Positions 14,499 to 63,455 of a stretch of DNA of 64,000 nucleotides are shown here, piece by piece (position 1 is the stretch's first letter; the number at the start of each line of letters is the position of its first letter). Both the position numbers and the translations under genes were made by a program. The stretch is from positions 1 to 64,000 of IMG/VR virus record IMGVR_UViG_3300040801_004532. The stretch is one strand, 5' to 3'. Below the pieces are notes generated by a model. The model did not search any database. It was not told the DNA's origin and saw nothing but the letters and a program-made list of their open reading frames with translations. Origin of the DNA: a virus.

Positions 14499-14689
14499 TA
14501 GTTTAATATCTCCTTACTATTTATCACTCTAACAAATTAGAAAATTCTTGCTGTAGGATCATCACTTGCATTTTATTTTTGTTCTAAATTTTTATTATTA
14601 TTAGATTTGTACCGAGAAGTATTTTTGGTAATGAGATGGCATCTATATATATTAATAACCGAAGAGGTGAATTTGTCTTGCGGAATTTA

Positions 14690-49080: not shown

Positions 49081-49221
49081 ATAAATGCCTCCTCAGTTTA
49101 GTTTTGATTTTGTTCCGATTAAAAAAATAATTAACCATTTAAAAAAACATTCATCTATATATATTAATAAGTGAAAGTAGGTTGGGCGCCTAATATTTAT
49201 TACCGAAGAAAGGAGAACAGC

Positions 49222-51904: not shown

Positions 51905-52107
51905 TTTCCCTTCCTTTCATTGATTAAATCTGGAATAGGTAAAGGCTTTCTATATTCACAATATAAACAAAGGTCTTGCATATTTACCACTTTTTCAGCA
52001 TTACACTTACCTTTAAAAGTACACCAATCATCCCTTGTTATCTGAAGTGAAACCCAACCTCCTAACCTTTTTACAGACCCCCCTGTACAAGTTGGACCAT
52101 TCGACAT
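51901..52107 (-). CDS. hypothetical Cys-rich small protein
   Basis: 68 aa. Confidence 0.25.
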   Translation of the reverse strand: MSNGPTCTGGSVKRLGGWVSLQITRDDWCTFKGKCNAEKVVNMQDLCLYCEYRKPLPIPDLINERKGK

Positions 52108-52339
52108 TTGAAAAACCTCCTACCCATTTAGAATAATTATATAGATTAAATAAAATTAAAACTGCCATTTGAATTAAGAGGAACCAATGAGTTTTTTGAT
52201 AAAAAATATATGCTTGGCACAAAAGACTAATATTAAACACCATGAAACCAGCAGGGCGCTTCTCTCCAATGAGATAAAGTCCAATTAATGTTGTGATAAG
52301 GGAAACTATTTCTAACCACCTTAGAAGATCCATTTGCAA
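52028..52339 (-). CDS. hypothetical membrane protein
   Basis: 103 aa with TM helices; overlaps the neighbouring ORF. Confidence 0.2.
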   Translation of the reverse strand: MQMDLLRWLEIVSLITTLIGLYLIGEKRPAGFMVFNISLLCQAYIFYQKTHWFLLIQMAVLILFNLYNYSKWVGGFSNVEWSNLYRGVCKKVRRLGFTSDNKG

Positions 52340-52791
52340 TATCCTTCATAAAGTATATATTTCTTTTCATATTTCCAAAGGGATTTTTGACTGGGGTAAA
52401 TTTTATTGAGATAGTCTTCTTTTACTGTTGGGAAAGCTACCTTATGAACATAATGAGCAATCATATTAACCGAGTAAAAAATCACATCTTCTTTTGAGCG
52501 TCTGGCCAATGATTCTCCAATCGCTCCAAACTCTCTATGATCCGGTTGATATTCATAAACAGGATCTGGAAAATAAAAGGTATTGTTTTGACCTAGAAAT
52601 CGGTCTGGAATTTTGTCTTCAAAAATAGTGGTTACTTGAAAATTTTTGGCTAGATTTTCTGTTTCTCTTCTTCTTTCATCTGAAGTACTCTTTGGATAAA
52701 TAACAACAGTTGATCTACTTGAAGTTAAAACCTCAAAACAGCCAATTAATTCATCATCTGGATGTGGTGCAACAATGACAATTTCGCTCAT
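52321..52791 (-). CDS. LmbE/PIG-L-family deacetylase-like protein
   Basis: IVIVAPHPDDELIGC N-terminal signature. Confidence 0.45.
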   Translation of the reverse strand: MSEIVIVAPHPDDELIGCFEVLTSSRSTVVIYPKSTSDERRRETENLAKNFQVTTIFEDKIPDRFLGQNNTFYFPDPVYEYQPDHREFGAIGESLARRSKEDVIFYSVNMIAHYVHKVAFPTVKEDYLNKIYPSQKSLWKYEKKYILYEGYCKWIF

Positions 52792-52889
52792 ATAAATCTC
52801 CTTTCAATTATTTGTTACTCATTATTAAAAAAAGATCTCTCTCTATACATTCTCATATTTTTATGTTCTAACTATATATATTAATAACT

Positions 52890-53280
52890 GATACAGGACA
52901 TTTGGTTTGGATAGAAGGGGTTTTCCGGTTTGTAAGGATAGCGCAATCGGATCTTCGGTCTCCTGGTATGGCGGTGCAAAAACGGCGCCGGCACCGGCCC
53001 TACTTCGGATTCTCGAGAAGCGCAATAAGAAATCTCATGAAGCATAGAATATTGTGCTTCGGAGTAAGGACCACAGTTCCTTGGTATTCCGGAAACCAAA
53101 ACTGTAGATGGTATGCTGTGACCTACTCTTCGCCCTCCTGCCGTGTACACAGGCTACATCCCCGGCCTTGCGGATGACTGCCCACGGCCATTCTGGCGGA
53201 CCGTTTTTCACACCGCCGGCGGCGAGATCAAAGGAACAGAATCCATCCCCCTTCTTTCCATTAACTATTCAAACGGAGGT
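52890..53280 (+). other. GC-rich (about 52% GC) non-coding island; candidate structured RNA
   Basis: No plausible ORF. Three cUUCGg motifs. Local stems ggcgg/ccgcc and cctg/cagg. Long-range tttccgg/ccggaaa pairing. Preceded by both recurrent promoter-like motifs. Confidence 0.25.
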
Positions 53281-53285
53281 ATAAA

Positions 53286-53459
53286 ATGACCTTAAAAATA
53301 TGTTCCATTTGCAATGAACCGTTTGAAAGTAAAAGTAAGAAACCTTATAAGATATGTAAAAACTGTTGTATAACAAAGGTTGAAAATGGAAACGTAAAGA
53401 ATGCATTAGAAAAACACAAAAAGGTCATTGAGAATTTAAGTTTAAAAACAACTAACTAG
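53286..53459 (+). CDS. small Cys-rich protein
   Basis: 58 aa, CSICNEPF…CKNCC. ggagg RBS. Confidence 0.3.
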   Translation: MTLKICSICNEPFESKSKKPYKICKNCCITKVENGNVKNALEKHKKVIENLSLKTTN

Positions 53460-53470
53460 AGGGGGATCAA

Positions 53471-53776
53471 GTGAGTTTGATAAATCCATTTTCTGAAATG
53501 AGCAGAGAGGAAATTATCACCGGCCAAATATTCTTTCGGGAGAAAGCACTAGCAAAAAAATTAGATTTGACAAACAGAAAGATCTTCCTTATCACAGGGA
53601 TTATTGCGATTCCTCCTTTCTTTCCATTCAAGAGCGAGCATATGTATGATTGTGGAGGGATGAATACTTCATCTGAAACCTTATTATCAATTAATCATTT
53701 AGGCAAAGATATACGAGATCTTTCTTTGGGAAGTACCCCTGATCAGTTAATTACAAAACCAATATGGAGAATTTGA
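53471..53776 (+). CDS. hypothetical protein
   Basis: 101 aa. Confidence 0.3.
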   Translation: MSLINPFSEMSREEIITGQIFFREKALAKKLDLTNRKIFLITGIIAIPPFFPFKSEHMYDCGGMNTSSETLLSINHLGKDIRDLSLGSTPDQLITKPIWRI

Positions 53777-53841: not shown

Positions 53842-53918
53842 CGGGGCGTGGCGCAGCCTGGTAGCGCGCCTGCTTTGGGAGCAGGAAGCCGGAGGTTCAA
53901 ATCCTCTCGCCCCGACCA
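53842..53918 (+). tRNA. tRNA-Pro (anticodon TGG)
   Basis: Cloverleaf folded by hand: acceptor cggggcg/cgccccg, anticodon loop tttggga, T-loop ttcaaat, CCA encoded. Confidence 0.8.
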
Positions 53919-53957
53919 CCCAATTTTAATTTTAAAAAACATAAAGGTCGAATAGTT

Positions 53958-54203
53958 ATGGTGAGGGTCATCCATAGGAATTGCAACAAACCAGCTTTTT
54001 ATTTTAAAAGCCGATTGGATATTGGGGATATTATATATGCCTCAAATATAATTTTCCTGGATGGATCAACTCCAGAACCGGACACCCCTATGATTTGTGG
54101 TTCATGCAACCAAATGATTTTATCAGGCGAATTAGAACAAGAAGGTTGGACCGACTGGTTTATGGTCGAAGAATTTCACACATTTGAAAACAAGAAAGGA
54201 TGA
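53958..54203 (+). CDS. hypothetical protein
   Basis: 81 aa. Confidence 0.3.
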
Positions 54204-54207
54204 GAAA

Positions 54208-54474
54208 ATGTCGTTGTTTGCAAAGAAGAAAATGACCCATGCTGAAATCGTTGCTCCATTAAAAACCATGGCTGAAACTCTATCAAGCTATATAAAAGAT
54301 CAAGCAGAAACCATTGGGGAATTGAATGTAAAAAAGAGAGAGATCGACAATCAGATTGAATTTTCAAATGAAGAAATTGAAAAATCAAACCATACAGTTG
54401 AGCAGATTAAGAAAATGGTTAACCTTCCCAAAATCAAGAAAATGCCGGCTGATTCGGTTCCTTCGGATGAATAA
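54208..54474 (+). CDS. hypothetical coiled-coil protein
   Basis: aaggatgag RBS. The ORF track starts at 54184. Confidence 0.35.
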   Translation: MSLFAKKKMTHAEIVAPLKTMAETLSSYIKDQAETIGELNVKKREIDNQIEFSNEEIEKSNHTVEQIKKMVNLPKIKKMPADSVPSDE

Positions 54475-54557
54475 CAATATGCCTGCGTGGCGATTAAATT
54501 CTTATATTCGAACCCTAAATTATTTTAGAACAAAAAAATAAAAGGGGTTCGACTATA

Positions 54558-55328
54558 ATGATTTGTGAATATTGTAAAAATAAACACGATGGATCATATG
54601 GATCGGGGAGATTTTGTTCTTCAAAATGTGCCAGGGGGTTTTCTACATCAAAGAAAAGAAAAGACATTAACAAAAAAGTGTCGGAAACTCTTAAAGGATA
54701 TAAAACAATTCCTGGCGGAAAAGTTAAATTATGCGATTATGGTTGTTGTAAAGAAGCAAAATTTCAATTGAAAAACAAAAAATGGTGTTGCTCAGAAAGC
54801 CATAATAAATGCTCAGCTGTTAGAAAGAAAAATTCTAAAGGTTTGACAAAATCGCATAAAAATGGGCGTCCTGCTTTTCCAGAAGGAGCTTATTTAAAGG
54901 GGCATGAGTCATTCAAAAAAAATCTTAAAGAAAAATATAAAAAGTTAAATTTTATTGATAAACCTATAGCAGAAAAACGAAAAATTATATTAAAGGATCA
55001 AAACAATAAATGTGCCATTTGTAATATTGAACAAGAATGGAATGATAAACCTTTAATTTTCCATCTTGATCATATAGATGGCAACAGAAAAAATTGGAGT
55101 AGAGATAATCTAAGATTTATCTGTCCCAACTGTCATAGCCAAACAGAAACATATTGTAGGGGAGGTAATAAGAACATATCAAATAAGCAGCTTAAAAAAT
55201 TACTAATAGAAACAAACTTTAATTTTACAAAAACTTTAGAATTAGCAAACTTATTTCCTGGTGGTTATAACTGGAACCGTGTTAAAAAAATAGCAAGTAA
55301 AATGTGCCAGGGTGATGGAATTTGGTAG
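54558..55328 (+). CDS. HNH homing endonuclease
   Basis: CAICN…HLDHIDGNRKNWSRDNLRFICPNCH. N-terminal zinc finger. The 3' end overlaps tRNA-Leu. Confidence 0.55.
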   Translation: MICEYCKNKHDGSYGSGRFCSSKCARGFSTSKKRKDINKKVSETLKGYKTIPGGKVKLCDYGCCKEAKFQLKNKKWCCSESHNKCSAVRKKNSKGLTKSHKNGRPAFPEGAYLKGHESFKKNLKEKYKKLNFIDKPIAEKRKIILKDQNNKCAICNIEQEWNDKPLIFHLDHIDGNRKNWSRDNLRFICPNCHSQTETYCRGGNKNISNKQLKKLLIETNFNFTKTLELANLFPGGYNWNRVKKIASKMCQGDGIW

Positions 55329-55392
55329 ACATGTATGTTTTAGAAGCATATGCCGTAATGGCGTGGGAGTTCAAGTCTCCCTCCTGGCACCA
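55306..55392 (+). tRNA. tRNA-Leu (anticodon TAG), type II
   Basis: Acceptor gccaggg/tcctggc, anticodon loop tttagaa, long variable arm, T-loop ttcaagt, CCA encoded. Confidence 0.75.
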
Positions 55393-55398
55393 AATCAA

Positions 55399-55872
55399 AT
55401 GAAAGTGAAAACAAAAATGAGCGATCATTTCCTTGAAGCGAGAATTCCATGTTATAAATGCCTTGTTATTTCAGCATGTAAAGAATTTAGTTGTCTTGAT
55501 GAATACCAAAAGGAAGCATTGAAAAATAATTATAGACAAATATGCCTAATGATTCCACAACCTGATTCACAAAATAAAAACTATAAGAAAAGTCTTTTAG
55601 AATGTTGGGCGAATTTAGGACATAGAATTTCTTCAAGTGTACAAAATAGTGAATCAGGCGATGTCAAGGAAGGAGATAGTGTTAAAATAAATCCTTCTTT
55701 ATCTTTTCTTATAAATGATCTATCTGCATTAACACAATGGATTATAAACTCCTCTAGTTGGAGAGAATCAGAATTCTACGAATTTGATCGTTTTGAAATA
55801 TCAAGGCGATTGGAAATTCTATTAAGAATTGTAAATTCAAGCCCGAGTAGCTCAGCTGGCCAGAGCGACTGA
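55399..55872 (+). CDS. hypothetical protein (start uncertain)
   Basis: The ORF track starts at 55312 inside the tRNA. The first Met after the tRNA is at 55399. The 3' end overlaps tRNA-Thr. Confidence 0.3.
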   Translation: MKVKTKMSDHFLEARIPCYKCLVISACKEFSCLDEYQKEALKNNYRQICLMIPQPDSQNKNYKKSLLECWANLGHRISSSVQNSESGDVKEGDSVKINPSLSFLINDLSALTQWIINSSSWRESEFYEFDRFEISRRLEILLRIVNSSPSSSAGQSD

Positions 55873-55917
55873 TTTGTAATCAGTAAGTCGGGGGTTCGAC
55901 TCCCTCCTCGGGCTCCA
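55841..55917 (+). tRNA. tRNA-Thr (anticodon TGT)
   Basis: Acceptor gcccgag/ctcgggc, D-stem gctc/gagc, anticodon loop tttgtaa, CCA encoded. Confidence 0.8.
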
Positions 55918-55938
55918 AAAAAAAGAAAGGATTGAATT

Positions 55939-56106
55939 ATGAATCCAGATGGGTATCATTTGGCATCAACTATATTCCTTCTGGTAAATGGGATTTGGTG
56001 GGGTAAAAATACTCCAATAAATCTTTTAATAAAAACTATATTCTGGAGTCTTGGTATATGGGGGGTAATTATTTGCCTTATTGATTTTGGATTGCTAACT
56101 CCTTAA
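55939..56106 (+). CDS. small membrane protein
   Basis: 55 aa with two hydrophobic helices. Confidence 0.25.
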   Translation: MNPDGYHLASTIFLLVNGIWWGKNTPINLLIKTIFWSLGIWGVIICLIDFGLLTP

Positions 56107-56116
56107 TTTAGATAAA

Positions 56117-56193
56117 GCCCCCGTAGCTCAGCGGAATAGAGCATCTGACTTCTAATCAGAGGGTCGCAGGTTCGAATCCTGCCGGGGGTACCA
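56117..56193 (+). tRNA. tRNA-Arg (anticodon TCT)
   Basis: Acceptor gcccccg/cgggggt, anticodon stem tctga/tcaga with loop cttctaa, T-loop ttcgaat. Confidence 0.8.
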
Positions 56194-56206
56194 CCAAAAC
56201 AAGGAA

Positions 56207-56509
56207 TTGCTAATGCTTGGAATGAGAGAAGAAATTTCAGAAATGATAGAAAATATCACATGTATAATCATAGGGCCACTTATTGTATTTATAGTTTTAG
56301 CAATAACCTCTATTGCTTTTATATTTTATAAAAATCCTTGTAACAAATGTATATTAAAAGTAAGGTGCTCAGAAGTATGTCATCAATCTAAAAAGTGGGA
56401 TTCAGCTCATGACATTTTTAACGACGCTAAAGAAATGCCAATATTGGCGGCAGCGGGTGCCTGTTATATTTTAGCAGTTGGAATAGCATTATATAATCTA
56501 CTCGTATAA
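56207..56509 (+). CDS. small membrane protein with a Cys motif (paralogue of 56761..57063)
   Basis: TM helix followed by PCNKCILKVRCSEVC. Confidence 0.35.
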   Translation: MLMLGMREEISEMIENITCIIIGPLIVFIVLAITSIAFIFYKNPCNKCILKVRCSEVCHQSKKWDSAHDIFNDAKEMPILAAAGACYILAVGIALYNLLV

Positions 56510-56540
56510 TTTGGTTAACCTGAAACAAGGCAGGAATTAA

Positions 56541-56798
56541 ATGGGAATTGAAAATCTTGAAGAGTTCAGAATAATTAAAGAAATTATCAGAAGGGACGGG
56601 GTCGGGATTCCTGATAGAAATGGATGGAAACCAAAAAGAGGTATGATAGTTGAGTTAAAAGACGGAAGACATGAAGTCTTTCGAACTACAGTTAAATCGT
56701 CTCTTGAGGAAACTATTATTCCACTCCTACCGCAAATCGAAAGAATAACATTCATTCTAGATGATGAAGAATATGAATTGGCTATATGTGATTGGTGA
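56541..56798 (+). CDS. hypothetical protein
   Basis: 85 aa. Confidence 0.35.
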   Translation: MGIENLEEFRIIKEIIRRDGVGIPDRNGWKPKRGMIVELKDGRHEVFRTTVKSSLEETIIPLLPQIERITFILDDEEYELAICDW

Positions 56799-57063
56799 AA
56801 ACGCTGCTTATGTTTATACACAAATTATATGGTTGCTTGTACGACTATGGGTATATATAACAGTAAAAGATCCATGTAAAAATTGTTTAATTAAATCATG
56901 CTGTACAGAAAAATGTGAAGAAAAAATTCAAATATTAAATTTCATATATCCTGAAGAAAAAGAAGGCGATGCAAAATTTATCGGGGTGCTTTGTCTATTT
57001 GCATTGGTCGTTCCTTCTTTTCTTTTGATATACTTTACAATTATGATAATTGCAGACCTGTAG
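56761..57063 (+). CDS. small membrane protein with a Cys motif (paralogue)
   Basis: DPCKNCLIKSCCTEKC followed by a C-terminal TM helix. Confidence 0.35.
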   Translation: MMKNMNWLYVIGENAAYVYTQIIWLLVRLWVYITVKDPCKNCLIKSCCTEKCEEKIQILNFIYPEEKEGDAKFIGVLCLFALVVPSFLLIYFTIMIIADL

Positions 57064-57127
57064 CCAAGCGGTAAGGCACGAGGTTTTGGTCCTCGCATCC
57101 CAGGTTCGAATCCTGGCAGGTCTGCCA
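57054..57127 (+). tRNA. tRNA-Gln (anticodon TTG)
   Basis: Acceptor agacctg/caggtct, anticodon stem cgagg/cctcg with loop ttttggt, T-loop ttcgaat, CCA encoded. Confidence 0.7.
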
Positions 57128-57241
57128 ACTCGAAAGGAAAATAAATGAAAGAAATTCAATTTCATCAAGTCAAAATTGATTTCTATTGTGATCGTTGTGA
57201 AGCAAGGGAAAAGGGTGTAAGCGTTCAGGAATGTATTTTCA

Positions 57242-57685
57242 ATGGTCCGCCCATGTGTCAAAAATGTGACGAAGAAATGTCACCGGTCAAAATCTTTCTC
57301 GACAAGTGAAAGGAACGTCATGACCGAAGAGCAAAGGTTTGAGCAGTTAATCGAAGATGAACGTATCAAAAATGTTACAACACTATTAAAAAAGATTGAC
57401 GAAAACGAAGTTCATTTTCAGGATCCAAATATTCAAGCGATTTTAGAAGAACTTTCTTCTTCCGAGAAGAAATTTTACAAATGGGTTTCATTGGCTGATT
57501 CCCTTCCGCGCGGATCCAAACTATTCAAATTATTAGTAAAGGTTCATAAACTCGGTATGATGGGGCATGAGAACTATCAAAAAATCTATGGTGACACGGT
57601 AGATAAGGACACGGAAGTCAGAGATAAATTATACGAAGATACTCCATTTGATAAGTTGGATGTCGATCAGGCATTTTTTGATTAA
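57242..57685 (+). CDS. hypothetical protein
   Basis: 147-aa ORF; the true start may be M at 57320. Confidence 0.35.
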   Translation: MVRPCVKNVTKKCHRSKSFSTSERNVMTEEQRFEQLIEDERIKNVTTLLKKIDENEVHFQDPNIQAILEELSSSEKKFYKWVSLADSLPRGSKLFKLLVKVHKLGMMGHENYQKIYGDTVDKDTEVRDKLYEDTPFDKLDVDQAFFD

Positions 57686-57691
57686 AACAAT

Positions 57692-57781
57692 GCCTGGGTG
57701 GTGGAACCTCGGTAGACACAAGGGACTTAAAATCCCTCGGGAATTATTCCTGTGCGGGTTCGATTCCCGCCCCAGGCACCA
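57692..57781 (+). tRNA. tRNA-Leu (anticodon TAA), type II
   Basis: Acceptor gcctggg/cccaggc, anticodon stem aggga/tccct with loop cttaaaa, long variable arm, T-loop ttcgatt. Confidence 0.75.
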
Positions 57782-58069
57782 ACATTAAGAAAGGAACAGA
57801 ATTTGTATAAGCTGACCTACTGTTTAAATAACCTTGGTGAATATGAAACATTTGCAGAGGCATTCTCTGTACTATATAAAAAATTAAGAGAAGATTCTAA
57901 AGATGGATTTTCATTACAGCTTCTCGAGACAGCAATATGGATCGACCATGATGGATATGGAAGTCCAATCTTCTTTTATGATATAGTAGATAGAGCTAAT
58001 AAACAAAACTTGCTTAAAGATGGCCAACTTGATGAAAAAGTCGTAAAAGAAGCAATAAATAAAGGGTGA
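57752..58069 (+). CDS. hypothetical protein (5' end overlaps the tRNA; true start probably later)
   Basis: 105-aa ORF ending 1 nt before tRNA-Leu(CAA). Confidence 0.3.
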   Translation: MRVRFPPQAPTLRKEQNLYKLTYCLNNLGEYETFAEAFSVLYKKLREDSKDGFSLQLLETAIWIDHDGYGSPIFFYDIVDRANKQNLLKDGQLDEKVVKEAINKG

Positions 58070-58155
58070 GGCCCGATGGTGGAACTGGTAGACACGCTGG
58101 ATTCAAAATCCAGTGCCATAATGGCGTGTGGGTTCAACTCCCTCTCGGGCTACCA
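58070..58155 (+). tRNA. tRNA-Leu (anticodon CAA), type II
   Basis: Acceptor ggcccga/tcgggct, anticodon stem ctgga/tccag with loop ttcaaaa, long variable arm, T-loop ttcaact. Confidence 0.7.
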
Positions 58156-58175
58156 ACTATTTTAGGAGGGAAGTA

Positions 58176-58346
58176 ATGGGTCTTCGAATTAAAAGTGGTC
58201 CTAAATGGGAAGACGATTCTTTAAATGAAATCAGTTTAAGTGCACTTGAAAGAGAGGCCAGAAAGTTTTATGAAAAAACAAGGCCTTGGGAAAAGAATTA
58301 TTGGAAAATAAATCAACGGAAAAAAAGAGATTGGGAAGAAGAATAA
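58176..58346 (+). CDS. hypothetical small protein
   Basis: aggaggg RBS 6 nt upstream. Confidence 0.35.
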   Translation: MGLRIKSGPKWEDDSLNEISLSALEREARKFYEKTRPWEKNYWKINQRKKRDWEEE

Positions 58347-58353
58347 ATTAAAT

Positions 58354-58431
58354 GGACCCATAGCTCAGTTGGCTTAGAGCCGCCGGCTCATAACCGGAAG
58401 GTCGAAGGTTCGAATCCTTCTGGGTCCACCA
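58354..58431 (+). tRNA. tRNA-Met (anticodon CAT; elongator type, possibly Ile-lysidine)
   Basis: Acceptor ggaccca/tgggtcc, anticodon loop ctcataa, T-loop ttcgaat. No C1·A72 mismatch and no GGG/CCC stem, so it does not look like an initiator. Confidence 0.7.
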
Positions 58432-58454
58432 TACTAAATACGAAAGGAATTACT

Positions 58455-59093
58455 GTGATACCAAGTGTCTTTTTCAAAGATTTCGAACAAGCTATAGATT
58501 CAATTATCAAAAAGAAAAACCAACGAAAAGTTACAGAAGAAATTATTGAAAAATTAAAAAGCCACGGATTCCCCCCATCATTGAATAAGGGAATTATAGT
58601 TGATGGACTTTCAAAAATTATTAATGAAGAACTTCCTTTCGATTCTTCTCGAGTTTTAACAGAAATGATTACATTTTCAAAAGCTGTACCCATTAAATTG
58701 ACAAACCATCAGAGATCAAATTTAAAAAAGATTATGGAGTGTATTCTTGAAACTCCAACAGACACAAGTTGCAACCATGACTCATTGGTAATTTCAATAT
58801 CAATTCATGGAGGCGGCTTTACACCAGTAATTAGATTGCCCGAAGTGATCTGTTTATATTGTGGTTTAAATGTCACTCTTTATTCAAAAGAAACAGAAAA
58901 ATATGGTATTGAAATCTCCGATAAAAAAATGAAAGAATTATTCAAATGGGCTATGGAAAACAGAGGTAAATTTGCAGAAGATTTTGTAAAAGATCCGATT
59001 GGATCATATAATAGCTGTGAATCAAAATGGGAGGGAGATATTCCTTTTAGAATAACAAATATGAAAGCATTCGAATCGCGTAGTGGTCAATAA
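58455..59093 (+). CDS. hypothetical protein
   Basis: 212 aa. Confidence 0.4.
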   Translation: MIPSVFFKDFEQAIDSIIKKKNQRKVTEEIIEKLKSHGFPPSLNKGIIVDGLSKIINEELPFDSSRVLTEMITFSKAVPIKLTNHQRSNLKKIMECILETPTDTSCNHDSLVISISIHGGGFTPVIRLPEVICLYCGLNVTLYSKETEKYGIEISDKKMKELFKWAMENRGKFAEDFVKDPIGSYNSCESKWEGDIPFRITNMKAFESRSGQ

Positions 59094-59134
59094 CCAACAA
59101 CTTTCAAGAGTCAAGACTAAGGAGAAAGAACAAA

Positions 59135-59680
59135 ATGGAAATGACAATAACGGAAGGTTTGAAAAGACTGAAACTCCTTGAAAAAAGGATGGCCAGAAAC
59201 TGTGGGGAAATCGAAAGATATTCCTCAATTCTATCAAATGAAAAACCTGCTTTCGATACAGAAGAAAAGCAGAAGCAAGAAGTGAAAAGTCTTATCCAGG
59301 CAAATATGGACCTGGTACAAGAATATGAAAAACTCAAAGCATCAATCGACTATACCAATCTTGTTATCAAGGTTAAGATTGGTGATCAAACCAGGACAAT
59401 CCATGGGTGGTTGACCATTCTGAGAAAGACTGGTCAGTTGCTCATTCAAACCTACAATTCCTTGAGCACGAGGGATGCAACATCAAGACAGCCCCGTTAT
59501 CGGGACCAGAACACAGGACAAAGCCCAACAGTTGTTCGTCTCTATGATGAAAATCAAAAACGGGATGGCCAAAGACTTTGGGAAGACCTTACCAAAGGAA
59601 AAGAGGTTGAAGGTCGTCTTGAAGTTATCAACGCAACAACCCAACTGCTGGATCCGCCCGAACCAGTTGAAAGGAGTTAA
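59135..59680 (+). CDS. hypothetical protein (GC-richer)
   Basis: 181 aa. Confidence 0.4.
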   Translation: MEMTITEGLKRLKLLEKRMARNCGEIERYSSILSNEKPAFDTEEKQKQEVKSLIQANMDLVQEYEKLKASIDYTNLVIKVKIGDQTRTIHGWLTILRKTGQLLIQTYNSLSTRDATSRQPRYRDQNTGQSPTVVRLYDENQKRDGQRLWEDLTKGKEVEGRLEVINATTQLLDPPEPVERS

Positions 59681-59684
59681 CTCT

Positions 59685-60017
59685 ATGAAGAAGTTTGGAG
59701 CATTCCTATTAGTAATTGGTTTCGTTCTGCTCCTTTGTGCTTCTGCAAGTGCTGATGGATTCTATAGGTGTGGCGGATATATGGTCAAGATTGGAGATCT
59801 GAAGTTTCAGGTCCTTCAAAAATGTGGACCGCCAGAAATGAGAGAGTTTGTCGGAAACTCGGCAGAAAGACAAACATATAGAAGGGGCAGAACAAGAAGT
59901 TATAATTACGACATGCCGGTCGAACAATGGATATATGGACCTGACCGTGATCTATGGCATGTTATCACCTTTAAAGGTGGTAAAGTATATAATATCGAAA
60001 GTATCATTCAACGATAA
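59685..60017 (+). CDS. small secreted protein (signal peptide)
   Basis: MKKFGAFLLVIGFVLLLCASASADG. aaggag RBS. Confidence 0.4.
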   Translation: MKKFGAFLLVIGFVLLLCASASADGFYRCGGYMVKIGDLKFQVLQKCGPPEMREFVGNSAERQTYRRGRTRSYNYDMPVEQWIYGPDRDLWHVITFKGGKVYNIESIIQR

Positions 60018-60204
60018 AGTTTGGGTTCGCTGGTCCTCACTGCTGCTTTTGTGCGGTGGGTTGGTATTAAGACCAGAGGGCTACGAGAAGCGGACCCAAT
60101 ACTTCTTTTGGATTCTGTAGTGTAAACAAGTGAAACCGGGGAGCCCTTTCATATTGGGATAAATATGAGACTACAATGGATATAGGTTGATTACCTATAA
60201 AACT

Positions 60205-60310
60205 ATTTCAAGTTTCAAGTATAAATTCTCAAGTCTCACTCGTGACCGCGGCGAGGGTAAATAACCATTTGCGGGTTTCAAGTTTAAAGGGGTAAAGAAT
60301 CAAGTTTAGG
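60205..60310. repeat. Five direct copies of the octamer TCAAGTYT in a non-coding region
   Basis: tttcaagtttcaagt…ctcaagtctc…tttcaagtttaaa…atcaagtttagg. Confidence 0.4.
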
Positions 60311-60408
60311 GCTTGGAATGATTCCATGCGAGAAAAACCCAGGTTTGGTGGTGCATCTCTCCAGCAACATTGCCACTACTGGCTGCTACACGGATCCAAT
60401 CAATTTAA

Positions 60409-60493
60409 TGCGGCGTAGAGAAGCGGTCAATCTCAGAGGGCTCATATCCCTCCGGCGTAAGCCTCACGGGTTCGAATCCCGTCGCCGCTACCA
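60409..60493 (+). tRNA. Unusual type-II (long variable arm) tRNA with a CAT anticodon
   Basis: Acceptor tgcggcg/cgccgct (U1·U72 mismatch), D-stem gaga/tctc, anticodon stem gaggg/ccctc with loop ctcatat, 13-nt variable arm, canonical T-arm acggg-ttcgaat-cccgt, A73, CCA encoded. Confidence 0.4.
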
Positions 60494-60497
60494 AAAT

Positions 60498-60575
60498 GGG
60501 GGCTTGGATTAATGCTTGATCGCCCTGACTCAAGAAGCAGGGAGGAGTAGAGTAGCGACCTACTAGCCCCCACCA
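60498..60575 (+). ncRNA. tRNA-like element (acceptor stem plus ACCA, non-canonical interior)
   Basis: gggggct…agccccc-a-cca. Internal hairpins ccctg/caggg and gtag/ctac. No TΨC-type loop. Confidence 0.2.
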
Positions 60576-60592
60576 TTAAAAAAGGAATAACC

Positions 60593-61168
60593 ATGATAAA
60601 AGAAGATACAACGAATGAAGAACTAGAGAAGGAAAAACAAAAATTAGAAAAAGACCTTGAGTCTTTAAGAAAAAATTATAAAACATTAATGACCAAATTG
60701 ACAAAAACAACTAATCGAATAAGTGAAATCGACAGCGAATTGGATAAAAGAAATTTAAAAGGAAATGATATTGAAAAATTATTAGAAACATTTCCTGAAA
60801 CCGAGACAAAAGAAAAATTGCTGCGCGATCTATTGAGCAAGTTTGATCTTTCAGCAGAAGGATATTTTCCCGATACTGGTCAAAGATGTATCCAAATTTC
60901 CTTGGAAAAGGACAGTAAAGAATCTCTCCAAAAAACATATTATGGTCTTAAATTACTTTTACCATATCTCAAACCAGTAAAAGATGGTAATATCTATGTA
61001 GATATTTTTGAAAGCACTTTATCAAGATTTGGAATCTATACTCTTATTATCAAAAAAGAGAAATTTGAAGTTGAGAAAACAACATGTGGACATCCCGAAA
61101 CAATCTACTCAAATAAAGATTTGAAAAAAGTTTTAGAATATATTCAAAAACATCATTATTACGAATAA
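60593..61168 (+). CDS. hypothetical coiled-coil protein
   Basis: 191 aa. Confidence 0.4.
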   Translation: MIKEDTTNEELEKEKQKLEKDLESLRKNYKTLMTKLTKTTNRISEIDSELDKRNLKGNDIEKLLETFPETETKEKLLRDLLSKFDLSAEGYFPDTGQRCIQISLEKDSKESLQKTYYGLKLLLPYLKPVKDGNIYVDIFESTLSRFGIYTLIIKKEKFEVEKTTCGHPETIYSNKDLKKVLEYIQKHHYYE

Positions 61169-61179
61169 GGAGATAAAAA

Positions 61180-61548
61180 GTGACAAGTTTTAGAGCAATG
61201 AAGGTTTTTGATTTTAAAGATGGGAATTTTTATAGAATCGCGTGTGCATGTGGAAGCTCTGATTGCGATTTAACACTTGAGTTAGAATATGATCCTCAGA
61301 TCAATCATGTTTATTTAAACATGTATAAAACCCTTAGATGGTCTTCATATTATAATGATGGAGATAAATGGTATAAAAATATTTGGTATCGTTTTAAAGC
61401 AGCTTTCAAATGTCTTTTCTTTGGTTATGTAGAAGTTGAAGAATCCTTTATTATAAGTGGTTCAGAACATATGAATGAATATATTAAGGTCCTTCAAGCA
61501 TGCCAAAAACATGTTGATAAAAGAGAAAAAGAAAGTCTGAACAAATGA
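61180..61548 (+). CDS. hypothetical protein
   Basis: 122 aa. Confidence 0.35.
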   Translation: MTSFRAMKVFDFKDGNFYRIACACGSSDCDLTLELEYDPQINHVYLNMYKTLRWSSYYNDGDKWYKNIWYRFKAAFKCLFFGYVEVEESFIISGSEHMNEYIKVLQACQKHVDKREKESLNK

Positions 61549-61883
61549 AAAAGGTTCATATAACAATAATTTACTTCACGCCAGAAAATGATGGGAATGT
61601 AAACTTATTAAAATTTACAAAAACAATTGAAATTGAACTCCCCGTTTTCATGTGTGGAGTATTTATAAAAAATGACGCAATTGAACAACTTGATCTAAAA
61701 GATGGTTATGTTAATTTTGATCCTTATATTAGAGAATACTTTGTTACAAATAGATGCTGTGATGGATTACCTAGGTATGGTTATTACTTTGGTCGTGACG
61801 GATATGATGACCCAAGAATAATTGATATTATCAATAAATTTGAAACTCATGGTTGGAAAACAGAACGATTGAAAAAAGGGTGA
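61545..61883 (+). CDS. hypothetical protein
   Basis: 112 aa. Confidence 0.35.
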   Translation: MKKVHITIIYFTPENDGNVNLLKFTKTIEIELPVFMCGVFIKNDAIEQLDLKDGYVNFDPYIREYFVTNRCCDGLPRYGYYFGRDGYDDPRIIDIINKFETHGWKTERLKKG

Positions 61884-61966
61884 GTTGCCCGAGTCAGGTA
61901 AGGGAGCGGTTTGCTAAACCGTCGAGTGTAAAAGCTCCACAGGTTCGAATCCTGTACTCACCGCCA
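61879..61966 (+). tRNA. tRNA-Ser (anticodon GCT), type II
   Basis: Acceptor ggtgagt/actcacc, G73, anticodon loop ttgctaa, long variable arm, T-loop ttcgaat. Confidence 0.75.
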
Positions 61967-61990
61967 ACAACTTCTAGAAAGGATTAAAAA

Positions 61991-62179
61991 ATGAATGATG
62001 GAAATTTGGCCCTTTTGATGATATTACTTCTGGCTTGGGGAATCTTTGGTTTAGCATGTAGCCTATCATGTGCTGTTTATTCGATTAAAAATTCCTCAAC
62101 AACCTGGTATAAAATTGCAGGATGGGTCGTTATTGCAAATACAGTCATTACTTTTCTAGCTGGAATACTCACACACTGA
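61991..62179 (+). CDS. small membrane protein
   Basis: 62 aa with two TM helices. Confidence 0.3.
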   Translation: MNDGNLALLMILLLAWGIFGLACSLSCAVYSIKNSSTTWYKIAGWVVIANTVITFLAGILTH

Positions 62180-62190
62180 AAGGGGTTGAG

Positions 62191-62391
62191 ATGACCGGTC
62201 GATATGTAGTAACTGGGGTCCAACTTGGTATGCTACAAGTTTTTTTTAAGGAGGGAAAATCTTCTGATGGACTAACTCTTCTTGAAAAAATTCTAGATAA
62301 ACAATTTGTTGGAAATTCATCCCGTGATATTGGGATTGACATAAAACTAATAGAACATTCGAAAACATTTACCAATGAAACTTCTACCTAA
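62191..62391 (+). CDS. hypothetical small protein
   Basis: aagggg RBS. The ORF track starts at 62122. Confidence 0.3.
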   Translation: MTGRYVVTGVQLGMLQVFFKEGKSSDGLTLLEKILDKQFVGNSSRDIGIDIKLIEHSKTFTNETST

Positions 62392-62704
62392 AGATCTTCT
62401 ATATAATCTATTAACTAAATATGGGGAAGACGAACAGCTAAGACAAGCTATGGGTGAATGTGGGGAACTAATAGCTGCTTGTCAAAATTATCATCGAGCA
62501 CAAACATACGGGCATCGAACAGAAACTCTTTCTGTTGTAATAGAGGAAGCAGTTGATGTTTTTTTCATGACTCAACAAATTCGGATTTTAAACCCGGAGT
62601 ATTTTGATGAACTTTGTGATAAAAAGCTTAAAAAAGTTTTGGCAAAATTTAAGAATGAAGTTCCTATTAAGACAAAAACCGATATACATAGTAACAACAA
62701 TTAG
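62375..62704 (+). CDS. MazG-like nucleotide pyrophosphohydrolase (putative)
   Basis: MGECGELIAA…VIEEAVDVFFMT, matching the EE..EL / EE.GDV pattern. Confidence 0.4.
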   Translation: MKLLPKDLLYNLLTKYGEDEQLRQAMGECGELIAACQNYHRAQTYGHRTETLSVVIEEAVDVFFMTQQIRILNPEYFDELCDKKLKKVLAKFKNEVPIKTKTDIHSNNN

Positions 62705-62729
62705 AATATCAAAACCTGAATCTAGGTGC

Positions 62730-62969
62730 ATGAGTTTCTATTATAGTTTAAAGAAAGCAAAAAGAGTAGTTGAATCAAATCAAGGTGACATAAATGAGAA
62801 TGGGCATTATTCATATTGTGTGATTGAAGAAACACTGCCAGGAATGTATTCATATCTCTTAAAAACCAGAAAAGAATGGTGGTTTCGTTTCAACCATGAC
62901 ATAAATAAATATGTGCCATGTGAAAAACCAGAGGAAAAAAGAAACACCATCGCCTTTGGAATGGGATAA
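62730..62969 (+). CDS. hypothetical protein (start uncertain; the ORF track starts at 62604)
   Basis: MSFYYSLKKAKRV…. Confidence 0.25.
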   Translation: MSFYYSLKKAKRVVESNQGDINENGHYSYCVIEETLPGMYSYLLKTRKEWWFRFNHDINKYVPCEKPEEKRNTIAFGMG

Positions 62970-62996
62970 TGAAACAAGATTAAAGAAAGGTATAAA

Positions 62997-63359
62997 ATGA
63001 AATACGAGGAATGTCCTAATTGCGAAAGTTCATATCTTGGAGATATATGGCAGAAAGAAAGAAAGTTACAACAAATCTGTCATGATTGCGGGTGGAAAGG
63101 CGAGGTTAGAACACCGGAGAAAAAACGAATCAACTATACAAAATCGGTTCGGGTGGGCCAATTCTATGGCTACCATTATGAAATTTTTGATAAGTATGGA
63201 CACACGGCAGTAATATCCAGGTATTATGATTCATGGGAGTCTGCGGATGCTGCAATAAAAAAAGAAATTGAAAACGGGAAAACCAACGTCCACGCTGGTC
63301 CCTATACTGGCATCCTATGGCCCCCAACTGTAACGGTAAAAGGAACTCGTTATAAATAA
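62997..63359 (+). CDS. zinc-ribbon protein
   Basis: CPNCESS…CHDCGW. Confidence 0.35.
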   Translation: MKYEECPNCESSYLGDIWQKERKLQQICHDCGWKGEVRTPEKKRINYTKSVRVGQFYGYHYEIFDKYGHTAVISRYYDSWESADAAIKKEIENGKTNVHAGPYTGILWPPTVTVKGTRYK

Positions 63360-63366
63360 GATCTAC

Positions 63367-63455
63367 GGAGGGGTGGTCAAGTATGGCGTGACAGCGGTCT
63401 TGAAAACCGTCGGGTGTAAAAAGCCTTGCAGGTTCGAATCCTGTCCCCTCCGCCA
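63367..63455 (+). tRNA. tRNA-Ser (anticodon TGA), type II
   Basis: Acceptor ggagggg/cccctcc, G73, anticodon loop cttgaaa, long variable arm, T-loop ttcgaat. Confidence 0.75.

Follow-up and report, generated by a model that had tools for sequence, protein, structure and literature searches.

The window analyzed here comprises 64,000 nucleotides (nt) of viral DNA (IMG/VR virus record IMGVR_UViG_3300040801_004532, positions 1 to 64,000 of that record), in which a preliminary description had singled out an island rich in guanine and cytosine (GC), located at positions 52890-53280 between two divergent genes, as a putative structured RNA. Comparison with homologues at the same locus in related uncultured phages, eight lineages in all, demonstrated an RNA family with a defined strand, fold, and genomic context, and with two hairpin loops that stay palindromic when their sequence changes. 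The island very probably encodes a conserved structured RNA of a family that is absent from Rfam 15. With a probability of roughly 0.45-0.55, this RNA acts in trans as a stable molecule and self-associates via the two symmetric loops, which would make it a compact functional analogue, not a homologue, of the RNA ROOL (Rumen-Originating, Ornate, Large) as well as of the RNA GOLLD.

In a MAFFT alignment of the homologues (A4), 33 base pairs in helices P1, P2, P3, P7, and P8 were 93% paired, and 17 of these pairs changed on both sides. When the pairing partners were slid by 1-3 columns, pairing amounted to 31-54%, and none of 500 shuffled alignments reached the observed pairing, number of double changes, or covariation score. 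The strands of P3a, P3c, P5, and P6 were extracted by hand because MAFFT misplaced differences in loop length; the resulting 16 pairs were 99% paired and included 12 double changes (slid controls 29-43%; 0 of 500 shuffles). Covariation across related phages, which had been proposed as a check on the island, was thereby found. Fourteen cells that are G-U on the + strand would turn into A-C mismatches on the opposite one, which indicated that the RNA is read from the + strand, the same strand as the upstream promoter-like motif and the downstream tRNA genes. Folding energies were mildly unusual only (z = -2.46 for the + strand and -1.36 for the - strand). Minimum-free-energy (MFE) folding, also suggested in the preliminary description, was thus weak evidence when taken alone, and the case for the RNA depends on the comparative data.

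Several open reading frames (ORFs) called mechanically, of up to 91 amino acids (aa) on the + strand and 89 aa on the - strand, crossed the island, and no reading frame was open in all homologues. Two of the homologues, L089 and L090 (related loci are designated by L numbers), were 96% identical and differed by two 1-nt indels. Because of these two observations the RNA was judged to be non-coding, as had been proposed. Compensatory substitutions that support a conserved fold, combined with the lack of a conserved ORF, are the mark of a structured RNA gene.

Searches with Rfam 15 at gathering thresholds detected only tRNAs in the window; nothing credible was found at E ≤ 10 in positions 52700-53500, and seven homologous loci yielded tRNAs only at E ≤ 1. 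ARAGORN identified 11 tRNAs and no transfer-messenger RNA (tmRNA) in the window, and no Rfam tmRNA match was obtained either. A resemblance to tmRNA noticed by eye was rejected, the hallmarks of tmRNA being tRNA-like ends and a frame that encodes a tag peptide. The covariance model for ROOL gave no match at gathering thresholds or at E ≤ 10 in positions 52700-53500, nor at E ≤ 1 in the seven homologous loci. The GOLLD model likewise remained without a match; GOLLD exceeds 800 nt, whereas the RNA described here measures 296-355 nt. No description of this RNA was found in the literature searched. With compensatory changes in at least ten helices, eight lineages, no conserved ORF, and no Rfam match in the window or its homologues, the earlier suggestion of a structured RNA outside the usual families was borne out. 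Among the three options considered at that stage (a novel phage RNA, a long 5′ untranslated region, and a remnant of foreign DNA), a novel phage RNA fitted best.

The homologues were collected by several routes. L013 was reached via relatives of the DNA polymerase in IMG/VR, and its homologue sits in the same position as in the window, between PIG-L and the 101-aa ORF family. A scan of metagenomes with GGGGTTTTCCNGTTTGTAA, a motif common to the window and L013, gave 48 matches and added L053. The only homologues among these matches were L052 and L063 (both identical to L013) and L053; most of the others came from bog samples and marked where an unrelated multi-copy element ends, and L023 and L045 were chance matches. 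Looking up relatives of two neighboring proteins added L025/L026 (3′ half of the RNA), L075 (5′ 236 nt), L076 (5′ 100 nt; from the same sample as L026 and perfectly complementary in P1), L084, L085/L088, L089, and L090. Full-length sequences were available for the window, L013, L053, L084, and L089/L090, and partial ones for L075, L085/L088, and L076 together with L025. The RNA is 296-355 nt long in the relatives and 46-68% identical between lineages; the neighboring PIG-L proteins are approximately 50-60% identical. A profile built from four full-length members recovered L013, L053, L084, L089, L090, L075, L085, L088, L076, and L025 with E-values from 1e-86 to 6e-9 and gave no matches beyond the known homologues. 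In the window, the nhmmer profile match covered positions 52901-53274 (E = 8e-77).

Wider scans yielded no further members. Two-block pattern scans of IMG/VR returned only L022, which lies on the same contig as L013, and L094, a chance coding match, while pattern scans of GTDB species-representative genomes gave nothing or chance coding matches only. No homologue was found when the RNAs of the window and L053 were compared by blastn with 50,697 cultured-phage records, a megablast search with 6 kb gave tRNA matches only, and exact 20-22-mers from the window were absent from IMG/VR. A first PIG-L scan in IMG/VR identified 12 loci, all without the RNA; a scan with the 57-aa ORF downstream of the island gave no matches, and no exact protein was on record for P0001 or for the PIG-L-like protein of the window. 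Because only chance matches resulted from these wider scans, the family looks rare and confined to this phage clade. In the course of this work, approximately 25 contigs from bog- or peat-type metagenomes (including L029, L031, L032, L035-L037, L039-L042, L048-L051, L058, L064, L068, L072, and L074) were seen to share a near-identical stretch of about 60 nt that ends in GCCGGGGGTTTTCCCGTTTGTAATAA and beyond which they diverge completely. This stretch resembles the end of a mobile element present in multiple copies and, setting aside a 19-mer shared by chance, has no relation to the phage RNA.

The predicted RNA, including an extended P1, spans positions 52904-53266, and its structured core, delimited by nhmmer and the comparative fold, spans 52909-53259; the island noted at 52890-53280 is real, with a structured part that is slightly narrower. 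All elements described below lie on the + strand. Helix P1 pairs the 5′ strand GGAUAGAAGGGG (52909-52920) with the pyrimidine-rich 3′ strand CCCCUUCUUUCC (53248-53259) in 12 base pairs, nine of which show changes on both sides. The corresponding strands are AAAUUAGAUGGGG/CCCCAUCUAAUUU in L013, AAACAUGGGG/CCCCAUGUUU in L053, and GGAAGAUGAAGGG/CCCUUCAUCUUCC in L076/L025. An invariant UUU linker connects P1 to the P2 hairpin (UCCGGUUUG...CAAUCGGA, 52924-52951), whose eight pairs are 100% paired and include three double changes. The long P3 arm (52954-53017) is made up of P3 itself (UUCG:CGAG in the window and UUCG:CGAR across homologues; 96.9% paired), P3a, P3b, and P3c, and ends in loop A (AAAAACGGCGCCG, 52978-52990), with the palindrome GGCGCC at 52984-52989. 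Seven of the eight pairs in the hand-curated strands of P3a and P3c show double changes. P4 (53017-53060) is a variable expansion hairpin with a conserved GAAG at its base; a long P4 occurs in the window and L075 only and covaries there, whereas in L013, L053, L085, L089, and L084 the hairpin is short or absent.

Hairpin P5 (AAGGA-CCACAGU-UCCUU, 53066-53082) has five pairs, two of them with double changes, and an invariant ACAGY loop. It is followed by P6 (GGU-AUUCCGGAA-ACC, 53083-53097), in which all three stem pairs show double changes and whose loop B carries the palindrome UUCCGGAA at 53087-53094. The near-invariant junction AAAACUGUA (53098-53106) is a candidate pseudoknot partner of the P5 loop: pairing between ACAGY and the linker RCUGU (CUGU at 53102-53105) is possible in every lineage and includes one compensatory change, C-G in L013 vs U-A elsewhere. 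A conserved UACAUUU motif just 5′ of P5 in L053, L085, and L089 is complementary to the linker AAA(C)UGUA. Its pairing with the linker would compete with the P5-loop pseudoknot and may represent an alternative conformation.

The 3′ domain (53107-53247) is closed by P7, a conserved UAUG/AAU internal loop, P8, and P9. P7 (GAUGG:CCAUC, 53107-53111 with 53243-53247; RAYGG:CCRUY across homologues) is 100% paired with two double-change pairs and directly abuts the 3′ strand of P1. Three of the four pairs of P8 (CUGU:ACAG, 53116-53119 with 53236-53239) show double changes. P9 (UCUUCGCC:GGCGAGA, 53127-53134 with 53221-53227; also given as UUCGCC:GGCG) was read by hand, as was the interior of the domain. 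This interior differs by clade, and in clades other than that of the window it contains a P10-P11 branch with a conserved AGA/AUA loop.

Several sequence motifs that had been pointed out earlier could be placed in this fold. The three CUUCGG strings are present and form helix strands of the conserved structure (5′ strand of P3, 3′ strand of P3b/P3a, and 3′ strand of P4) rather than tetraloops. The ggtgc/gcacc stem is real, corresponds to P3c and covaries, and the ggcgg/ccgcc stem is retained in the closest relative. The proposed long-range tttccgg/ccggaaa complement was not kept in the homologues; L013 has UUUUCCAG vs UCUAGAA at these sites.

Loop A (13-17 nt) carries its palindrome on the 3′ side, reading GGCGCC in the window, L075, L076, L085, and L089, GGCGCGCC in L013, and GGAGCUCC in L053. 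In loop B, six lineages have UCCGGA, which the window extends to UUCCGGAA, while L013 and L089/L090 have UCUAGA. Both loops thus keep their palindromy when they change, and the stems beneath both covary. In OLE loop L9.3 and GOLLD loop L21a, switches from one palindrome to another have been read as support for kissing loops that are symmetric and intermolecular (Kretsch et al., Nature 2025; PMC12286853). Switches in OLE replace, for example, GGCC by GAUC or by AGCU; the argument is that adjacent nucleotides of a loop cannot pair together within one chain (PMC12286853). By analogy with OLE and GOLLD, whose symmetric kissing loops bear the same signature as loops A and B, the RNA probably self-associates.

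Upstream of the RNA, by approximately 20-35 nt, lies the promoter-like motif CTATATATATTAAT (52872-52885, + strand). Three exact copies occur in the window, all on the + strand (14643-14656, 49155-49168, and 52872-52885); with up to two mismatches, eight matches were found vs 1.9 expected, a count reached by none of 100 shuffles. The motif also lies 20-35 nt upstream of the RNA in L013, L053, L084, L085, L090, L075, and L076, and at every related locus it precedes either the RNA element or tRNAs; in L077 the tRNA genes follow it directly. A sigma-70 scan detected no site at 52872-52885. The motif probably represents a promoter class specific to this phage group. An array of 11 tRNA genes (53842-63455; Rfam and ARAGORN) lies downstream on the + strand. 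Downstream tRNAs were also found in L013/L052, L025, L084, and L089, and they were on the same strand as the RNA at every locus whose contig extends far enough. Because no terminator follows the RNA, it probably shares a transcript with the downstream small ORFs and tRNAs.

Close relatives differ in what follows the motif. The element is lacking in L014, L077, and L017, while others with a neighboring protein of approximately 50% identity keep it, so that the absence of the region from relatives, named earlier as a possible refutation, applies to a part of them. In L014, which closely resembles L013 in the flanks, CTATATATATTAAT is directly followed by a 105-aa ORF, and alignment of L013 5440-5900 with L014 5740-5945 revealed a clean indel of about 340 nt that corresponds exactly to the P1-to-P1′ module. 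These differences at the slot and the exactness of the indel indicated that the element behaves as an RNA gene cassette complete in itself, inserted at the start of a tRNA transcription unit, with which it is probably co-transcribed. In L017, an ORF and a structured element of another type occupy the slot after the motif. This element, about 190 nt long and GC-rich (L017:5490-5700, - strand), is located before a tRNA-Pro gene in a shared gene order and forms two long hairpins on folding (MFE -77.6 kcal/mol, z = -5.5). No Rfam family matches it, and it may represent a further stable RNA that has escaped annotation.

Taken together, the proposed scheme is that the island would encode a stable, trans-acting, structured non-coding RNA of about 350 nt in a clade of uncultured huge phages. 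Transcription of the + strand would start where the tRNA island begins, from the conserved promoter motif of the phage, and the RNA, as part of a shared transcript, would be freed or stabilized by the long closing helix P1. It folds around a junction of P1, which joins the ends, a 5′ domain (P2, the long P3 arm, the variable P4, P5, and P6), and a 3′ domain (P7-P8-P9 with variable branches), and a pairing of the P5 loop with the invariant CUGUA linker is possible. The loops at the tip of the P3 arm and on P6 offer self-complementary sequence; most likely, copies of the RNA would use both as symmetric kissing loops to associate as dimers or in larger assemblies. That the RNA is transcribed and processed, that it self-associates, and any role it may have in relation to tRNAs or translation are all predicted from sequence. 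A further step, in which the RNA would represent a compact (~300-350 nt) phage class that builds a closed oligomer or cage, free of protein, through two symmetric kissing loops per monomer, is tentative and rather doubtful.

A number of observations weigh against a trans-acting, self-associating RNA. The sample is small (eight lineages, five of them independent and full length), and the palindrome switches are few independent events, one or two in loop B and two in loop A. Palindromes of 6 nt are not unusual in an RNA this rich in GC; eight occur in 355 nt vs approximately 5.5 expected. In L084 the arm is short, its loop is a plain AAAA, and the loop A palindrome is missing; the P6 stem is weak in L089. 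Part of the structure, the hand-curated helix set, depends on the strands that were chosen, and the comparative fold of the window sequence (-120 kcal/mol) lies 11 kcal/mol above the unconstrained minimum (-131 kcal/mol). The element is dispensable, since L014, L077, and L017 manage without it. Transcription, ends, and stability of the RNA are themselves predictions. Finally, terminator scans revealed no intrinsic terminator after the RNA in the window, L053, or L089, and the ribosome-binding site (RBS) is located 16 nt past P1 in the window, so that a cis-acting leader role is possible.

Such a leader, riboswitch-like or sensing a protein or tRNA as a 5′ untranslated region of the downstream small ORFs and tRNA operon, is nevertheless unlikely. 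In the window, L025, and L013, the element does come directly after the promoter motif, with an RBS 16-40 nt further on; no terminator-like site was found past the element, and the pyrimidine-rich 3′ strand of P1 (CCCCUUCUUUCC) could in principle compete for a Shine-Dalgarno-like sequence. These features kept the long 5′ untranslated region of the preliminary description under consideration. However, the next gene belongs to no consistent family among lineages: the window and L025 have the 57-aa Cys-rich ORF, L013 and L084 a member of the 101-aa family, and L089 an unrelated 109-aa ORF. In L089, moreover, a 117-aa ORF, not the promoter, precedes the RNA. L014 has the same downstream gene and promoter without the element. 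Neither a terminator or anti-terminator nor a conserved alternative-pairing expression platform was found, and 300-355 nt with about 11 helices is far above the size of known leaders of this type. A scaffold in a ribonucleoprotein, whose palindromic loops and conserved junctions would bind a (dimeric) phage or host protein instead of RNA, is more unlikely still. The invariant single-stranded motifs (UUU, GAAG, ACAG, CUGUA, UAUG/AAU, and AGA/AUA) are of the kind expected for protein or tertiary contacts and the 101-aa protein family is frequently adjacent, but no neighboring protein strictly accompanies the RNA: L014 has the 101-aa family and no RNA, and in L089 the RNA lacks this neighbor. Self-pairing is also the simpler explanation for symmetric double substitutions or insertions in the palindromes.

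A mobile or catalytic RNA, such as a degenerate ORF-less intron or a tRNA-processing ribozyme (e.g., a divergent RNase P-like RNA), is very improbable. Presence or absence exactly at the boundaries of P1, HNH endonuclease genes in the tRNA region, and the tRNA-adjacent position would fit it, and the ACAGAA of the window, beside the 3′ strand of a long-range helix, recalls CR-V of RNase P. Bacterial RNase P RNA is recognized by a P4 pseudoknot with the conserved motifs GAGGAAAGUCC and ACAGAAcCCGG. No P4-type pseudoknot and no GAGGAAAGUCC-like motif were found in the RNA, ACAGAA is replaced by ACAAU in other clades, and the helix that it flanks, P7, is nested, not pseudoknotted. At E ≤ 10, no Rfam model for an intron, RNase P, or a small ribozyme matched, save for a sub-threshold group II domain-5-like match at 53010-53066 (22 bits vs a gathering threshold of 61) in the variable P4 hairpin that most homologues lack; furthermore, the element sits in an intergenic leader and interrupts no gene. 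Function at the level of DNA, as an origin, packaging site, or operator cluster, or no function at all, as a GC-rich foreign remnant, can be regarded as highly improbable too. The GC-rich composition, several palindromes of 6-8 bp, and variable presence among relatives agree with it, but compensatory changes tie together positions 130-340 nt apart (P7 and P1), strand-specific use of G-U pairs implies selection on a single-stranded + transcript, and 46-68% identity with 93-99% pairing is incompatible with neutral decay. With its structure under purifying and compensatory selection, the remnant of foreign DNA considered in the preliminary description was rejected.

The genomic setting was as first described. 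GC content, calculated in 200-nt windows, was 0.49-0.515 across 52900-53299 vs 0.25-0.37 in the flanks, so that the island at 52890-53280 stands out with 49-52% GC in phage DNA of approximately 31% GC. It occupies most of the 494-bp interval between the start codons of a PIG-L-like gene (52321-52791, - strand), its left neighbor, and a 57-aa Cys-rich ORF (53286-53459, + strand), which follows directly downstream, outside the RNA, with an RBS (GGAGG; RBS and ORF together 53275-53459). A 52-aa homologue of the latter follows the RNA in L025 and is absent in L013. A 101-aa ORF (53471-53776, + strand) lies between the 57-aa ORF and the tRNAs. The window belongs to an uncultured tailed phage, with matches to a DNA polymerase of family A, a helicase of the DnaB-like type, and a portal protein. 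Identity of the major capsid protein to its counterparts in jumbo phages (e.g., phiR1-37 and AR9) amounts to only about 25%, and related contigs measure 244-248 kb.

Other features of the neighborhood were observed. The 101-aa ORF belongs to a conserved family of 101-116-aa proteins that often adjoins the RNA (window 53471-53776, + strand; L013 5133-5450, L014 5493-5810, and L084 1609-1959, all - strand), with invariant G18, Q19, and R23 and a C-terminal (I/V/M)WR(I/V). Neither Pfam nor PHROG gave a match to the family, which occurs without the RNA in L014 and does not lie beside it in L089. A short ORF resembling PnuC, a nicotinamide mononucleotide transporter (52028-52339, - strand), overlaps the PIG-L-like deacetylase gene, and a 385-aa ORF shared by L013 and L014 (L013 3974-5131, - strand) resembles nicotinate phosphoribosyltransferase by eye only. 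Together, these neighbors may form a module for salvage of nicotinamide adenine dinucleotide (NAD) or for counter-defense beside the tRNA island. Between tRNA-Pro and tRNA-Leu of the window, a 256-aa Cys-rich ORF (54558-55328, + strand) gave weak, sub-threshold Pfam matches to HNH endonucleases, and it extends at its 3′ end about 20 nt into the beginning of tRNA-Leu. Several mechanically called ORFs that coincide in part with tRNA genes are probably spurious. Such a setting of tRNAs, HNH endonucleases, and NAD-salvage-like genes is typical of auxiliary or counter-defense regions; that it bears on the role of the RNA is speculation.

Large ornate RNAs without an assigned function are rare, and each new class is instructive. 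Natural controls are at hand in L013 and L014, which differ by the presence of the element, and in L084, which lacks one palindromic loop. If the RNA indeed self-assembles, RNA multimerization next to tRNA genes would be a recurrent phage strategy, and the present RNA would offer a smaller system in which to probe its purpose. Should the more doubtful cage also form, it would be a further RNA multimer from a tRNA island after ROOL and GOLLD, specific to huge phages and of a size tractable for studies of its function during infection. A possible role would then be to sequester or protect tRNAs or translation factors from host defenses that target tRNAs.

Individual features of the RNA have counterparts in several known systems. 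Among the stable RNAs of phage T4 are the small "species 1 and 2," also called bands C and D, which are encoded within the T4 tRNA cluster and co-transcribed with it. To our knowledge, these measure about 120-140 nt and have no reported palindromic loops, and no sequence relation to the present RNA is expected. The dimerization initiation site of HIV-1 is a hairpin whose loop carries variants of a 6-nt palindrome, GCGCGC or GUGCAC, and homodimerizes by a kissing-loop interaction; unlike the RNA described here, it is a single hairpin inside a viral genome and not a stand-alone RNA of several domains. OLE, a large RNA that dimerizes by a symmetric kissing loop and shows the tetranucleotide switches GGCC, GAUC, and AGCU (PMC12286853), shares the behavior of its loop with loops A and B. 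However, OLE is a bacterial RNA of Firmicutes, about 600 nt long, with known protein partners, neither phage-borne nor located beside tRNAs, and no Rfam match to it was found here.

Closer parallels exist with ROOL and GOLLD, which are RNAs of phages and prophages often found near tRNA islands (PMC12286853). ROOL, GOLLD, and OLE are RNA-only multimers, the first two forming cages and OLE a dimer (PMC12286853). Like the present RNA, ROOL is highly structured; it is independent of protein and assembles via kissing loops, one of them symmetric (PMC12286853). It differs by its length (approximately 500-600 nt vs 296-355 nt) and helix layout, and oligomerization of the present RNA is only predicted. 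GOLLD resides in phage tRNA islands and its loop L21a covaries between palindromes, as loops A and B appear to do here, whereas its more than 800 nt and 14-mer cage contrast with a much smaller, two-domain junction architecture. The RNA thus has three features in common with the group of ROOL, GOLLD, and OLE, namely position in a tRNA island, phage origin, and palindromic loops that appear to covary, while it is unrelated to that group in sequence and about half as large. Phage RNAs that are large and ornate, lie beside a tRNA island, and show signs of symmetric kissing loops are a known kind; the family, architecture, and size of the present one are new.

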